Shown: positions 1,925 to 19,632, counted from the first letter of the stretch. The stretch is DNA of 64,000 nucleotides from Escherichia coli (GCF_041886205.1 NZ_CP169029.1); one strand, 5' to 3'. The notes: generated by a model from the sequence alone, not told the origin. Program-made: numbers and translations.

Positions 1925-4149
1925 TATCGTTCTGCCGTGAAAAGTGTTTGAATATCATCGCGTAACAGCTGGGCGTCGGTGTAAATCCAGCCGTGAGTCA
2001 TCACAGTCTGCTGCAATTGCTGCTGCATCAGCCTGACCACCGATTCATTTTGTTGACGCAGAGCCAGACTTTCGCGTAAACGCGTCTGTAATTCCGTCAA
2101 ACATGAAGCGAACTCAGCGAAAAAAGTATTCATGCCTGCCGTAACAGATTCATCGACCTGCTCTGCCAGAACTTTAGCCATTTGTTGGCAATAAAGATCG
2201 ACTTCTGCGCTTAATGCTCGTTGCAACACACTGTAATCAACCGTTTCTGTCGGGGATTTCTCATTTCCCCGTCCCCAGTCAGGCTGATTCAACCAGCGCG
2301 AAAAAGTCTCACGCACAACGCCTAATCGCGTGCTCTGCTCGTCCGTTGCTTCCTGGCGCGAAATGACTTCACTGAACAGCTGGCGAGTGTTGAAGTGGGG
2401 AACTACGCCGTGAAAAACAGGAAAATGAAACCCAGGACGAAACCCTGACTCGCTCAATTCCATTTTGACTTGTTGCTCAATGGGGCGAATAACATCGGTT
2501 AACACCCGGCAAAGGGTGGATTCAAGCTCGGCAAAACGCAGCGTAAAGTCGCGACTGATGGTGTTCTGCGCCGTCTGTAACAGTGTCTCACAGCGGGTAC
2601 GAATCTCGCTTAACGGCTCCGAATCATCCTGAAACAAGGCGGCTAACTGCGCATTCAGCGCATCTTGTTGTTGACGCAGAAAGTGGTTGGCGGAGGTCAG
2701 GGCCAGCTCGATTTCATGTTTAATCTCGCCGCTCACCTGCGCCTGATTGAGTTGCAATAGCTGCAAACTTTCTTCGACCTGATGGATATTTTGCCGCAAT
2801 TGTTCACAAGCGACGTTTAACCCGTGCGCACGAAAATCCAGGTATTCCCGCGCCTGCTGCGCGTAATTCAACAGTTTATGCGCAGCAGATCGCAGAGCAT
2901 ACAACGAGGCGTTAGCGTAAGCGGCATGAAGCAACGCCTGAATTGGCTGGGCGAACAGCGAATCTTCCCACAACTGATCGGCAGCATGACGAATATGTTC
3001 GAGGTCCGCCAGATCGGCATGACGCCAGCGCCTGCCGAGCGCGGCATGGGCAAAATCTTCCACCCAGCGTTGTTGCTCTGGCGCGGGTAACTTACCGTTG
3101 TTGGCTAACTCATGGCGCGCCCGATTCGCCAGGTAGCCCCACATCGACGACACCGGAAATATCTGCTGTGGCGTAATACAGCCTTTCATCAGCGTCCCGG
3201 AAATCAGTGCCCGCACCTGGTCGGCGTCGTCACTGTTACGATCCTGTTGATCGAACTTATTGACCAGCACATACAGCGGCACCGATTGCCCCACCGCCAA
3301 AATCGCCTCACGGACCTCTTCATCGGAGATCGATTTCAGTTGCGTATAATCCAGCACCGCCAGTACCGCCGAGGCGCGTGCCAGCTGCTGGTTAAGCATT
3401 TTTTGCAGATGCGGTTGCCCGGCTTCATTTGGCCCGGGGGTATCCAGTAGCGTCAACTGACCGGGATAACTCTCCAGCCCCGCCAGATGGACAAACTCCA
3501 CTTCAATCACGGGAATATGCTCAATGACGGCGTAAGCAGAAAAAGGAAAATCGACGTCCAGCGCCTTCGCCAGTCGCACTAAATCATTCAAACTTTTCAG
3601 ACAATGAAAAATAGGCTGGGCACCCAGATAATATTTTTCGAAAGCGACGCCATTTTCGATCCGCTGCATAAGCGCACGCATATCTTTATCTATTTCCAGC
3701 ACATCGGTCAGATGCTTAATATCGCAATCACGCAGGCGCTGTTGTAATTGTTGAATTAAACGGTCGATTGGCGCGACATGTGAAAAATGCAGTACCGGTT
3801 CTTTTTGCCCGGGCGTATGGCGAATAAGCGTCGGCAGCGCAGTCATTGGGCGATTACGATTAGGCAGAACCTCCGTACCAACAATGGCATTAATGGTGGT
3901 TGATTTCCCTGCTTTCATGGTACCGACAATTGCAAGCACCATTTCCAGTCGGGAAATTTTACGCAACTCATTATTCAGCATCGCGTGACGTTCGGCGATA
4001 TTAGGCTGACTCCAGGGTAAAGCCAGTTGTGGCGCGTCGTCTCCGGGTACAGAGAGAGACATTTTTTCCAGTAACTGCAACTGTTGGCGAGAAAGCTGTA
4101 ACAGGCGTTCAGCCTCCTGACTTAACTCATACAGGGTCTGTGTGTACAT
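1921..4149 (-). CDS. crfC: Dynamin-like GTPase CrfC (YjdA), 742 aa
   Basis: 742-aa ORF with a GTPase P-loop (GTMKAGKSTT) and long coiled-coil-like C-terminal region; divergent from phnA. Confidence 0.85.
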   Translation of the reverse strand: MYTQTLYELSQEAERLLQLSRQQLQLLEKMSLSVPGDDAPQLALPWSQPNIAERHAMLNNELRKISRLEMVLAIVGTMKAGKSTTINAIVGTEVLPNRNRPMTALPTLIRHTPGQKEPVLHFSHVAPIDRLIQQLQQRLRDCDIKHLTDVLEIDKDMRALMQRIENGVAFEKYYLGAQPIFHCLKSLNDLVRLAKALDVDFPFSAYAVIEHIPVIEVEFVHLAGLESYPGQLTLLDTPGPNEAGQPHLQKMLNQQLARASAVLAVLDYTQLKSISDEEVREAILAVGQSVPLYVLVNKFDQQDRNSDDADQVRALISGTLMKGCITPQQIFPVSSMWGYLANRARHELANNGKLPAPEQQRWVEDFAHAALGRRWRHADLADLEHIRHAADQLWEDSLFAQPIQALLHAAYANASLYALRSAAHKLLNYAQQAREYLDFRAHGLNVACEQLRQNIHQVEESLQLLQLNQAQVSGEIKHEIELALTSANHFLRQQQDALNAQLAALFQDDSEPLSEIRTRCETLLQTAQNTISRDFTLRFAELESTLCRVLTDVIRPIEQQVKMELSESGFRPGFHFPVFHGVVPHFNTRQLFSEVISRQEATDEQSTRLGVVRETFSRWLNQPDWGRGNEKSPTETVDYSVLQRALSAEVDLYCQQMAKVLAEQVDESVTAGMNTFFAEFASCLTELQTRLRESLALRQQNESVVRLMQQQLQQTVMTHGWIYTDAQLLRDDIQTLFTAERY

Positions 4150-4899: not shown

Positions 4900-5080
<181 letters not shown>

Positions 5081-15351: not shown

Positions 15352-15772
15352 GCTTCGCCCGGCCACGCAGTACGACACCGACGCGGTTTACGCGCTGATT
15401 TGTGAGCTAAAACAGGCGGAGTTTGACCACCACGCGTTTCGCGTGGGTTTTAACGCCAATCTGCGCGACCCAAACATGCGCTACCATCTGGCGCTGCTTG
15501 ATGGCGAAGTTGTCGGCATGATCGGCCTGCATTTGCAGTTTCATCTGCATCATGTCAACTGGATCGGCGAAATTCAGGAGTTGGTGGTAATGCCGCAGGC
15601 GCGCGGTCTGAACGTCGGCAGTAAGTTACTGGCGTGGGCAGAAGAAGAAGCCCGCCAGGCCGGGGCCGAAATGACCGAACTTTCGACCAACGTGAAGCGC
15701 CACGACGCGCACCGTTTCTATCTGCGCGAAGGCTACGAGCAGAGCCACTTCCGCTTCACCAAGGCGCTGTAA
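15338..15772 (+). CDS. phnO: Aminoalkylphosphonate N-acetyltransferase PhnO (GNAT)
   Basis: 144 aa GNAT-like protein overlapping the phnN 3' end. Confidence 0.9.
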
Positions 15773-15773
15773 C

Positions 15774-16532
15774 ATGAGCCTGACCCTCACGCTCACCGGC
15801 ACCGGCGGCGCACAGGGCGTTCCGGCATGGGGCTGCGAGTGTGCGGCCTGCGCCAGAGCGCGGCGCTCGCCGCAGTATCGCCGCCAACCGTGCAGCGGCG
15901 TAGTGAAGTTTAACGACGCAATCACCCTGATCGACGCCGGGCTGCACGATCTCGCCGATCGTTGGTCGCCCGGATCGTTCCAGCAGTTTTTGCTGACGCA
16001 TTATCATATGGATCACGTCCAGGGGCTGTTTCCGCTGCGCTGGGGCGTTGGCGATCCGATCCCGGTTTACGGCCCGCCGGATGAACAGGGCTGCGACGAT
16101 CTGTTTAAACATCCGGGCCTGCTTGATTTCAGCCACACGGTGGAACCGTTTGTGGTGTTTGATTTGCAGGGGTTACAGGTCACGCCCCTGCCGCTCAACC
16201 ACTCAAAACTGACCTTCGGTTATCTGCTGGAAACGGCACACAGCCGGGTGGCGTGGCTGTCTGACACCGCAGGCTTGCCGGAAAAAACGCTGAAATTTTT
16301 ACGCAATAATCAGCCGCAGGTAATGGTGATGGATTGCAGTCACCCGCCGCGCGCGGATGCACCGCGTAATCACTGTGATTTAAATACCGTGCTTGCGCTG
16401 AATCAGGTTATCCGCTCGCCACGGGTGATTCTGACCCATATCAGCCACCAGTTTGATGCGTGGCTGATGGAAAACGCACTACCGTCAGGGTTTGAGGTGG
16501 GGTTTGATGGGATGGAGATTGGGGTGGCGTGA
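15774..16532 (+). CDS. phnP: Phosphodiesterase PhnP (metallo-beta-lactamase fold)
   Basis: 252 aa with HxHxDH motif ([10 protein letters not shown]). Confidence 0.9.
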
Positions 16533-16552
16533 TGAGAGGGAATGTGCGCGCT

Positions 16553-16660
16553 GGCCCCCTCACCCTAACCCTCTCCCCAGAGGGGCGAGGGGACCGATTG
16601 TGCTCGATATTGAATATTGCGCTCGTTTTCTCCCTCTCCCCATTGGGGTGAGGGGCGATG
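16553..16660. repeat. Two C-rich/G-rich imperfect palindromes in the convergent phnP-yjdP gap (possible bidirectional terminator or small repeat-family element)
   Basis: CCCTCACCCTAACCCTCTCCCCAGAGGGGCGAGGGGAC at ~16557-16594 and CTCCCTCTCCCCATTGGGGTGAGGGGCG at ~16630-16657; each can fold as a GC-rich hairpin. Confidence 0.5.
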
Positions 16661-16678
16661 CCTGCTCCATACCCAACC

Positions 16679-17008
16679 TCATCGCCCATACTCATCTTCC
16701 ATTCTCCGCTCTTCATCCTCCAGTTGCCGACGCTCCTGATCAAGCTGGCGCTGGCGATCGTCCAGCTGCCTGCGGCGATCTTCAAACTGGCGGCGGCGGT
16801 CGTCATATTGTCTGCGCCGATCGTCGCTCACTTCACGCTGCCAGCCGTCGTCGCGCGAATCTTCATAGTCTCGCCCACGGTCAGGGTTATAAGCGTCATT
16901 AATCGCCTGCTGAATATTGCCAATGGTGTCGTCGATAATATCGGCCTGGGCCGGAACGGTGGACAGCGTGAGCAGGGTGAATAAAAGAAATAGCGGAAAG
17001 CGTTTCAT
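16679..17008 (-). CDS. yjdP: Small secreted protein YjdP (109 aa)
   Basis: Signal peptide MKRFPLFLLFTLLTLSTVPAQA followed by a repetitive D/R/Q/E-rich region (RRQYDDRRRQFEDRRRQLDDRQRQLDQERRQLEDEERR). Confidence 0.8.
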   Translation of the reverse strand: MKRFPLFLLFTLLTLSTVPAQADIIDDTIGNIQQAINDAYNPDRGRDYEDSRDDGWQREVSDDRRRQYDDRRRQFEDRRRQLDDRQRQLDQERRQLEDEERRMEDEYGR

Positions 17009-17076
17009 TAGCCAACCTCAAAAAGAAACTCTATCCACATTAATCATTACTCATCCATGCAAGTAGTGGATGAATC

Positions 17077-17394
17077 TCAATTTCTCCGCTGCTCTATTGC
17101 CGTAATCGCCTCCACGCGTTGTTGATGACGACCGCCTTCGTACTGTGCGCCCAGCCACGCATCCACAATCATTTTTGCCAGTTCGAGGCCAACCACTCGT
17201 GAACCAAAAGCCAGTGCAACTTCACTGGCGTAATGCGGATAATCAGTGCGCTCTGACGACCTGGTTTCTTTATCAATCCCCTCACTCATTGACCATGAAT
17301 AAAAGGCTGGCACAGCAACACAGAATCCTGCGGTGCCAGCGACATGACCGCCCATTGCTCCGGTACGTTTTTTAATAAAAAACACCGGTTGCAT
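17077..17394 (-). pseudogene. rpiB: Remnant of ribose-5-phosphate isomerase B (rpiB): C-terminal half retained, internal in-frame deletion, non-RpiB N-terminus
   Basis: The 105-aa ORF contains SSERTDYPHYASEVALA fused directly to FGSRVVGLELAKMIVDAWLGAQYEGGRHQQRVEAITAIEQRRN. Both match remembered RpiB but with ~58 intervening residues missing, and the first ~36 residues do not resemble RpiB. Confidence 0.6.
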
Positions 17395-17634
17395 TGATTA
17401 ATTGTGCTCAGTATTTGCCGAAGTACAATATATATAATAAATATATAAAACACCTCATATTATTTACAGAGATAATAAATTCGCGTACTTTTCCCTCTTC
17501 AGCACAAATGCCTAATAAAATGGCGCGTTCAGCTCACACTTCCACTTATTAAAGTCGCAATTTCCCAATTATGATAACGCCAGCTTTAAATGACGTATTT
17601 TGCATGGATTACATATTTACGACATAAATGATAA

Positions 17635-19632
17635 ATGGAGATTTATATGAATAACTCTCGGTTATTCCGTTTGAGCAGGATTGTTATTGCGTTAACTGCC
17701 GCCAGCGGCATGATGGTAAATACCGCTAACGCGAAAGAGGAAGCGAAAGCCGCCACTCAATATACCCAACAGGTTAATCAGAATTACGCCAAATCATTAC
17801 CGTTTAGCGATCGTCAGGATTTTGACGATGCCCAGCGTGGATTTATCGCCCCGCTGCTGGATGAAGGTATTCTGCGTGATGCGAACGGTAAAGTTTACTA
17901 CCGCGCGGACGATTACAAATTTGATATTAATGCCGCAGCGCCGGAAACCGTAAACCCCAGCCTGTGGCGTCAGTCGCAAATCAACGGTATTTCTGGCCTG
18001 TTCAAAGTCACCGATAAAATGTATCAGGTGCGCGGCCAGGATATCTCTAACATTACGTTCGTTGAGGGCGAGAAAGGCATTATTGTTATTGACCCACTGG
18101 TGACGCCACCTGCCGCAAAAGCCGCACTTGACCTTTACTTCCAGCATCGTCCGCATAAACCGATTGTTGCCGTTATCTACACTCACAGCCACACTGACCA
18201 CTATGGTGGCGTGAAAGGTATTATCTCTGAAGCCGATGTTAAATCCGGCAAAGTTCAGGTGATTGCCCCTGCAGGCTTTATGGACGAAGCCATCAGCGAA
18301 AACGTGCTGGCGGGTAACATCATGAGCCGCCGTGCGCTCTACTCTTACGGTCTGTTACTGCCGCACAACGCGCAAGGCAACGTGGGTAATGGCCTTGGCG
18401 TGACGCTGGCAACGGGCGACCCGAGCATTATTGCACCGACTAAAACTATCGTCAGAACTGGCGAGAAGATGATTATTGACGGCCTGGAGTTTGACTTCCT
18501 GATGACCCCAGGTAGCGAAGCGCCAGCCGAAATGCACTTCTATATTCCGGCCCTGAAAGCCCTGTGTACCGCCGAGAACGCCACGCATACCCTACACAAC
18601 TTCTACACTCTGCGCGGCGCGAAAACCCGCGATACCAGCAAGTGGACCGAGTACCTGAACGAAACGCTGGATATGTGGGGTAACGACGCGGAAGTCCTGT
18701 TTATGCCGCACACCTGGCCGGTCTGGGGCAATAAGCATATCAATGATTATATTGGTAAATATCGCGATACTATCAAGTACATTCACGACCAGACCCTGCA
18801 CCTGGCGAACCAGGGCTACACCATGAATGAAATCAGCGACATGATTAAGCTGCCGCCTGCACTTGCCAATAACTGGGCCAGCCGTGGCTATTACGGTTCT
18901 GTCAGCCACAACGCCCGCGCGGTGTATAACTTCTATCTTGGCTATTACGACGGTAACCCGGCTAACCTGCATCCGTATGGTCAGGTGGAGATGGGTAAAC
19001 GTTACGTGCAGGCGCTGGGCGGTTCTGCCCGTGTCATCAACCTAGCGCAAGAAGCGAACAAGCAAGGTGATTACCGCTGGTCGGCAGAACTGCTGAAACA
19101 GGTGATTGCCGCCAACCCGGGTGACCAGGTCGCGAAGAATCTGCAAGCGAATAACTTTGAACAGCTGGGCTATCAGGCCGAATCCGCCACCTGGCGCGGT
19201 TTCTACCTGACCGGCGCGAAAGAGCTGCGCGAAGGGGTGCATAAGTTCAGCCACGGCACCACCGGTTCCCCGGACACCATTCGCGGGATGTCGGTCGAAA
19301 TGCTGTTCGACTTTATGTCCGTTCGCCTCGATAGCGCGAAAGCCGCGGGTAAAAATATCAGCCTGAACTTCAATATGAGCAATGGCGATAACCTCAACCT
19401 GACGCTGAACGATAGCGTGCTTAACTACCGTAAAACACTGCAATCCCAAGCTGACGCCTCTTTCTACATCAGCCGTGAAGATCTGCACGCCGTGCTAACC
19501 GGGCAAGCCAAAATGGCGGATCTGGTAAAAGCGAAGAAAGCCAAAATTATTGGCAATGGCGCGAAACTGGAAGAAATTATCGCCTGTCTGGATAATTTCG
19601 ATTTGTGGGTGAATATCGTAACCCCAAATTAA
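17635..19632 (+). CDS. yjcS: YjcS, alkyl/aryl-sulfatase-like metallo-beta-lactamase-fold hydrolase with signal peptide
   Basis: 665-aa ORF; HSHTDHYGG metal-binding motif; N-terminal signal peptide. True start may be the internal MNNSRLF at 17647. Confidence 0.85.

Follow-up and report, generated by a model that had tools for sequence, protein, structure and literature searches.

The stretch of DNA analysed here, called the window, is 64,000 nucleotides of an Escherichia coli genome (GCF_041886205.1, NZ_CP169029.1), and it raises the question of what occupies the interval between yjdP and yjcS once the D-allose genes are gone. Is it a site that never held them, a small working gene, or debris? 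We conclude that positions 17009–17422 are very probably the remnant of the D-allose locus (rpiB and alsR-B-A-C-E-K), destroyed by two deletions and now an old and common allele, referred to below as the scar. The yjdP–yjcS interval measures 638 bp in the window. In a K-12-type genome (MC1061; locus L002) it spans 7,270 bp and holds rpiB, alsR, alsB, alsA, alsC, alsE and alsK; compared with K-12, the window has lost 6,631 bp net. The set that defines a D-allose locus, with alsR, alsB, alsA, alsC, alsE and alsK beside rpiB, is missing from the window: tblastn with all six K-12 als proteins found no als gene in the 64 kb, and its sole matches were generic ATP-binding cassette (ABC) ATPase similarities to phn genes. 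A preliminary description of this stretch had reported that the als locus is absent and that only a truncated rpiB remains between yjdP and yjcS, in an interval of ~630 bp with a 105-codon open reading frame (ORF). The results of blastn and tblastn and the gene layout bear this out. The same description listed alsR and rpiR as separate genes; they are one gene counted twice, and K-12-type annotation has alsR only.

The interval resolves into five pieces, most of which can be assigned to the parental locus. We mapped the breakpoints by blastn against L002 followed by base-by-base comparison. Window positions 16400–17214 match L002 12001–12815 over 815 bp at 100% identity, rpiB codons 105–149 included; positions 17205–17278 match L002 12965–13038 at 90.5% identity (rpiB codons ~31–54); and from 17423 onward the window follows L002 from 19655 onward at 95.8% identity. 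The remnant of the alsK flank gave a local-alignment score of 44 against L002 19602–19653, while shuffled sequences gave 23.4 ± 2.2 (maximum 29); with this score and its place in the expected order, the remnant is not a chance match. As expected of deletion remnants, the two rpiB pieces (3′ and middle) and the alsK stop codon with its hairpin keep the order and orientation of the parental locus and sit at the orthologous site. Compared with the K-12 D-allose regulon locus (rpiB/alsI, alsR/rpiR, alsBACEK), the window has the same site and flanks, an identical rpiB 3′ end, and an rpiB middle and alsK 3′ flank that are still recognisable. The K-12 locus differs in having six als genes and rpiB codons 1–28 and 54–104, and in lacking a 78-bp spacer that follows the alsK remnant in the window.

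Two junctions separate these pieces (Table 1). At junction 1, 150 bp (50 codons) are missing between the imperfect repeats CAAAAGCCAG and CAACAGCCAG. K-12 holds these repeats 150 bp apart, and they have in common six perfect bases, AGCCAG, which is a signature of short-repeat deletion. The preliminary description had put the internal gap of the RpiB-like ORF at ~58 residues; the gap is real, its size is 50 codons, and the alignment with full-length rpiB is interrupted by it. Junction 2 was drawn by comparing the window collinearly with K-12, SCPM-O-B-8794 and E. whittamii, and divergence blurs its exact base. The simplest history that we can propose has two steps. A deletion of 150 bp inside rpiB would have occurred between the near-identical 10-bp direct repeats, as is typical of slippage or short-homology illegitimate recombination. 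A deletion of about 6.56 kb would have removed the DNA from rpiB codon ~29 through alsR, alsB, alsA, alsC and alsE to nearly all of alsK. The remnants would then be unable to make an isomerase, transporter, kinase, epimerase or regulator.

Table 1. Features of the scar and its flanks, in window coordinates.
Feature	Position	Strand	Remark
phnP	15774–16532	+	closes the phnM-N-O-P (+) run
Two palindromes like repetitive extragenic palindromic (REP) elements	16540–16660		between phnP and yjdP
yjdP, intact	16679–17008	-	left conserved flank of the variable site
Chimeric 105-codon ORF (318 nt)	17077–17394	-	RefSeq WP_001183282.1, 'RpiB/LacA/LacB family sugar-phosphate isomerase'
rpiB 3′ remnant, codons 105–149 and stop codon	17077–17214	-	0 of 138 nt differ from K-12 rpiB
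Junction 1, microhomology CAAAAGCCAG	17205–17214		150-bp in-frame rpiB deletion; two K-12 alignments overlap by 10 bp
rpiB middle remnant, codons ~29–54, strongly diverged	17205–17284	-	~90% identical to K-12
Junction 2, rpiB codon ~29 joined to last alsK codons	17279–17292		~6.56 kb missing relative to K-12
Eight bases assignable to no parental piece	17285–17292
alsK stop codon (TGA, 17296–17298) and downstream hairpin remnant	17293–17344	+	77% identical to K-12
78-bp spacer, private to the scar allele	17345–17422		no K-12 counterpart
Conserved yjcS upstream region and yjcS	17423–19632	+	right flank common to all site states
yjcS	17647–19632	+	RefSeq start; first in-frame ATG at 17635

The scar is common. 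Among 5,426 complete E. coli genomes, 3,404 (62.7%) have the als operon at this site, 1,569 (28.9%) have the scar, and 411 (7.6%) have a lyxose-type gene cluster; other states, obtained by difference, make up ~42 genomes (0.8%). Genomes were counted as carrying the scar if they aligned to a junction-spanning query at a coverage of at least 80%. Each of the matches listed is a single blast piece, and one scar genome is 100% identical to the window over 1,401 bp. The als, scar and lyxose counts sum to 5,384, and the states are therefore effectively mutually exclusive. The rpiB fragment was found at 4,982 places in 4,979 genomes, which leaves no room for a second rpiB copy in scar genomes. The lineages with the scar include the phylogroup D strain 042, O103, O111:H11, O22:H8 and O166:H15. 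That an assembly error or a mis-join produced the arrangement is a negligible possibility: we found no point in favour of it, and the same sequence recurs in 1,569 independent complete genomes.

The third common state shows that the interval is a replacement site with several alleles, in which different gene sets stand between the same flanks and exclude one another across genomes. The lyxose-type cluster is ~9.4 kb long (L003 11540–21048; also L004) and its gene content bears no relation to that of als. Its products are a hybrid histidine kinase, a sugar ABC transporter, a D-lyxose/D-mannose isomerase, an aldolase, a kinase and a response regulator. The cluster is typical of O157:H7, O55:H7 and O145, and occurs in others too. 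Like the scar, the O157:H7-type cluster occupies the yjdP–yjcS interval, as an alternative sugar-utilisation cassette; unlike the scar, it has no rpiB fragment and consists of unrelated genes. The right boundaries of the als, scar and lyxose states fall within 4 bp of each other (window 17423–17427), with homology of the right flank restarting at 17423 for the K-12 type and at 17427 for the O157 type and the type seen in Escherichia sp. MOD1-EC7003.

Relatives of E. coli carry further versions of the site. Our sample of relatives came from a scan of contigs for YjcS; E. albertii, E. fergusonii, E. marmotae, E. ruysiae and the E. coli representative are not among it. The als genes are at the site in E. 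whittamii and SCPM-O-B-8794, and the lyxose cluster is there in Escherichia sp. E1V33 and a Citrobacter. Kluyvera georgiana, Kluyvera genomosp. 3 and Salmonella enterica subsp. arizonae have an empty site, phnP–(yjdP)–yjcS, with no trace of rpiB. In a Pluralibacter metagenome-assembled genome (L031 555–9700), yjdP is followed by a 5′-truncated rpiB (residues 64–149, 88% identical) and, beyond it, by a 1,478-aa autotransporter-like ORF and a partial lyxose cluster. This locus resembles the scar in that a truncated rpiB adjoins yjdP and the als genes are absent; it differs in having another breakpoint and no internal deletion. The Pluralibacter truncation is an independent event in another genus, and the locus indicates that the als and lyxose cassettes may once have stood side by side.

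These relatives bear on whether the site in the window was ever occupied. If the site were ancestral and empty, K-12 would later have gained als-rpiB by insertion, and the empty sites of Kluyvera and S. enterica subsp. arizonae are possibly the deeper ancestral condition. For the window allele we find such a history scarcely credible, since an unoccupied site would hold neither two in-frame rpiB pieces nor an alsK stop codon and hairpin in parental order, and the identities of 100% and 90.5% exclude chance similarity. Moreover, the truncated rpiB beside yjdP in Pluralibacter argues that the rpiB–yjdP linkage predates Escherichia. The preliminary description had offered two readings, a deletion scar or an ancestral site without the locus; the fragments of rpiB and of the alsK flank, in parental order at the orthologous site, support the first and lead us to reject the second for this allele.

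If the interval is a deletion scar, what is the ORF that RefSeq annotates within it? Its sequence can be accounted for almost codon by codon. Codons 1–17 derive from the 78-bp spacer, codons 17–34 read the alsK terminator hairpin in antisense, codons 38–62 correspond to RpiB residues 29–53, and codons 63–105 correspond to RpiB residues 107–149. RpiB residues 1–28 and 54–104 have no counterpart. On the proposed history, the reading frame would start in non-coding spacer, cross the old alsK terminator hairpin in antisense and join the two in-frame rpiB pieces. The N-terminus, described earlier as unrelated, is indeed not derived from RpiB; it is not foreign coding sequence, however, but the antisense of the alsK stop and hairpin together with the spacer.

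The ORF shows none of the features that mark a member of the RpiB/LacA/LacB family, namely a match to the whole domain (about 138–145 model positions), a score above the curated cut-off and the active-site stretch. The Pfam model PF02502 matches it at model positions 102–138 of 138 (E = 6e-9), with a non-significant match at 27–49, and the NCBIfam match covers profile positions 103–143 only. The NCBIfam scores are 77 bits against a cut-off of 138.65 for TIGR01120 and 61.7 bits against 88.3 for TIGR00689. Alignment to the E. coli RpiB structures 1NN4 and 2VVR gives two separate stretches with the middle missing. The deleted K-12 residues 54–104 include the segment ILICGTGV (63–70) with C66 and T68, as well as H99 and N100, and the missing residues 1–28 include D9 and H10. 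In the E. coli RpiB structures these six residues have catalytic roles.

Could the 105-aa ORF nonetheless be functional, as a shortened isomerase or as a new small protein under selection? It is open at 105 codons in 10 of 10 scar loci (seven translated, and three, L073–L075, by annotation). The NCBI Prokaryotic Genome Annotation Pipeline (PGAP) calls it a coding sequence, not a pseudogene, in every scar record that we inspected (all listed matches and the fetched loci, from the 1,569 scar genomes), and four protein variants are on record (WP_001183282.1, WP_001182929.1, WP_001183287.1 and WP_001183290.1). We consider a function very unlikely, given that about half of the RpiB domain is missing, including the stretch with C66, T68, H99 and N100, and that the NCBIfam scores lie under their cut-offs. 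The substitutions may also point away from purifying selection: of 13 variable sites among five distinct haplotypes, 9 are nonsynonymous and 4 synonymous, near the neutral ratio of 3:1, although the counts are small for a formal test, and strain 042 has a G87C change in the conserved GGRH motif. Signals for expression also appear to be wanting. The native rpiB promoter region is deleted, the sequence upstream of the ATG (CACAATTAATCA) contains no Shine-Dalgarno-like motif, and a promoter scan of 16900–17700 found no sigma-70 promoter-like site. Judging from its sequence, then, we hold the ORF to be a pseudogene remnant, an accidental reading frame across debris, and regard the RefSeq/PGAP isomerase label as systematic over-annotation.

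Hairpins survive on the alsK side of the scar and occur in its spacer. The remnant of the alsK-flank hairpin still folds (−19.1 kcal/mol, z = −3.7) and has one compensatory change, from the T:A pair of K-12 to C:G. The spacer forms an A/T-rich hairpin at about 17356–17393 (−13.1 kcal/mol, z = −3.1). A scan of 16900–17700 returned two terminator-like hairpins, one of them at junction 1 (17229–17210). Here the junction sets a pre-existing rpiB hairpin (GCCAGTG...CACTGGC) right before a T-run, giving a terminator-like site inside the chimeric ORF (17210–17229, minus strand), which we judge to be an incidental by-product of the deletion.

The 78-bp spacer belongs to the scar. It is confined to 1,573 scar genomes among the 5,426 searched, with one copy in each, and it is not in the als alleles of K-12, UTI89, LWY24, SCPM-O-B-8794 or E. 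whittamii. At its left end, E. whittamii and SCPM-O-B-8794 still keep 9–13 nt, and the spacer looks like ancestral sequence that was later shortened in als-carrying lineages, a step that we infer. There is a weak resemblance between its right-hand 33 bp and the spacer that precedes yjcS in the O157 type; in a position-restricted test, 30 of 2,000 shuffles equalled the score. We treat this resemblance as a hint of an als/lyxose hybrid origin and not as evidence for one. A blind search for a source of the spacer in als, lyxose-cluster and outgroup loci gave scores of 14–17, against 14.4 ± 1.5 for shuffles, and so nothing above the shuffled background.

Comparison of scar haplotypes points to a single and distant origin. 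We aligned seven of them, from the window, 504239, AST20, LH85-a, M6, 2003-3014 and the enteroaggregative E. coli (EAEC) strain 042 (L001, L005–L008 and 042). They are collinear across both junctions, have no internal indel and are 97.6–100% identical over 661 bp. Three further scar loci outside the alignment (L073–L075) carry the same 318-nt annotated ORF. With the same junctions throughout, the allele appears to have arisen once. Its private parts have diverged considerably. The rpiB middle piece differs at 9–11 of 80 nt from every intact rpiB sampled; the corresponding figure is 3 of 80 for E. coli alleles among themselves and 6–8 of 80 between E. coli and SCPM-O-B-8794. The best identity of this piece is 92.8% among the als-carrying rows listed from ~3,410 als-carrying genomes, and the contrast with the undiverged 3′ piece is significant (Fisher's exact test, p = 9e-5). 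The scar-private segments as a group are 10–23% diverged from every sampled als allele, which suggests that the deletion is old and not strain-specific.

A recent, private deletion in the lineage of the window strain, starting from a K-12-like als locus, would explain why the left flank, the rpiB 3′ remnant included, matches K-12 at 100% identity as far as the junction. It is nevertheless highly improbable. Both junctions are apparently common to 1,569 genomes, including 042, O103, O111:H11 and O22:H8, the private segments are 10–23% diverged from K-12, and 78 bp retained in the scar are absent from all als alleles sampled. Under the older origin that we favour, the allele would have arisen once, long ago and not in the window strain, and would circulate as one of the three mutually exclusive states. 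We read the identity to the left of junction 1 as the effect of free recombination with als alleles, which would keep that sequence homogenised. The pieces locked between the junctions would travel with the scar only, and so record a long separate history and pseudogene decay.

The flanks are themselves polymorphic. Over 8.7 kb to the left of the scar, the window and K-12 differ by 3 mismatches, and to the right the divergence from K-12 is about 1.7% over at least 4.8 kb. Between the window and other E. coli strains (L005–L010), phnO–phnP (15400–16530) is 94–97% identical. The 5′ half of yjcS (17430–18900) has 87–92% identity to some E. coli strains, for example 87% to LWY24 and 91.7% to M6. 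Such a pattern is what one would expect if homologous recombination in the flanks carried the scar from one genetic background to another.

A more ambitious conjecture is that the scar is a null allele that predates the split of E. coli from E. whittamii and SCPM-O-B-8794, or that was introgressed from an unsampled Escherichia lineage, and that niche-dependent (balancing) selection, not drift, has kept it at ~29%. Such a history is consistent with private segments that exceed the divergence of SCPM-O-B-8794 (9–11 against 6–8 per 80 nt), with the retained 78-bp spacer, shortened in all sampled als alleles, and with the unusually polymorphic flanks. We put it forward tentatively and think it rather unlikely to be right. 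Should it hold, selection would be maintaining a null allele of trans-species or introgressed origin, a result of moderate interest.

Some points weigh against the history of two deletions and an old, non-functional allele. Both junctions are present in every sampled scar, so the order and number of the deletion events are not recoverable. Junction 2 cannot be placed to the base. The microhomology anticipated at the breakpoints, once these were aligned against K-12, is present at junction 1 (CAAAAGCCAG), but none could be clearly demonstrated at junction 2. The source of the 78-bp spacer was not found, and were the spacer an insertion instead of ancestral sequence, the history would be more complex. 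Finally, a strict pseudogene might have gained a stop codon by now, though with ~13 segregating sites the openness of the frame is not unexpected.

The loss of the allose pathway and of RpiB, as proposed in the preliminary description, follows from the absence of the als genes and of RpiB residues 1–28 and 54–104, and it agrees with the phenotype of EAEC 042. This strain lacks the als locus and did not use D-allose in Biolog assays (Chaudhuri et al. 2010, PMC2808357). Its scar, we find, is that of the window, with both junctions alike and 97.6% identity over 661 bp. The 'complete absence' which that study gives for the operon, with rpiB counted in, is slightly inaccurate, since the alsK flank and two fragments of rpiB are still there. 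On this reading, the window strain should be unable to grow on D-allose and should have no RpiB back-up for RpiA. The presence/absence polymorphism of als and its D-allose phenotype are already known. In a separate survey alsK was absent from 21 of 63 genomes (PMC5992433), which fits the frequencies in our 5,426 genomes, and rpiB/alsB are among the accessory genes statistically linked to fitness in a pan-genome study with a mastitis model (PMC11390585). The junctions, the single origin, the age of the allele and the three-state site are not described in PMC2808357 or PMC5992433. The junctions, single origin, depth of the allele and three-state site are refinements of an ordinary finding.

The scar is thus a common, old deletion allele, real but ordinary, which leaves the current understanding of E. 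coli biology unchanged, and the practical points that it raises are modest. It predicts a trait for roughly three in ten E. coli, namely that they do not grow on D-allose and lack RpiB as a back-up for RpiA. The isomerase annotation of debris can mislead metabolic reconstructions and pan-genome counts, and a pseudogene flag would be fitting. The yjdP–yjcS interval also offers a clean three-state marker (als, scar or lyxose cluster) in a highly recombining and highly polymorphic region, useful for studying how old presence/absence alleles persist.

The left flank of the site is well conserved at yjdP. The YjdP protein is 100% identical to that of K-12 over 109 aa (tblastn), and RefSeq also annotates the gene in the near-identical strain 504239. 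In Escherichia sp. MOD1-EC7003 (L011 8500–10000) the site is in a fourth state: beyond yjdN lies a piece of phnO that runs directly into the upstream region of yjcS, the two meeting at a shared CGAAGTG motif. The cassette, yjdP and most of the phn operon have been deleted there. Individual genes near the site have decayed in other strains. UTI89 has an internal stop in alsC (L009 13040–14020), phnO is frameshifted in an O157:H7 strain (L003 9938–10373), and phnE is frameshifted in K-12 (L002 3247–4034). The alsC stop implies that carriage of the als operon is no guarantee of a working allose pathway.

An Rfam scan of 16400–17800 at E ≤ 1 matched no family. A 15-nt direct repeat has two copies that are 87% identical: ATTGTGCTCGATATT (16597–16611) lies between the REP-like units after phnP, and ATTGTGCTCAGTATT (17401–17415) lies in the scar-private spacer. 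The match is probably due to chance; it may instead be a shared protein-binding motif. Farther to the left, a tandem array of a 100-bp unit, resembling REP sequences or bacterial interspersed mosaic elements (BIMEs), lies between yjdM and yjdN, with 1.8 copies in the window (4900–5079) and 5.8 in K-12 (L002 93–672).

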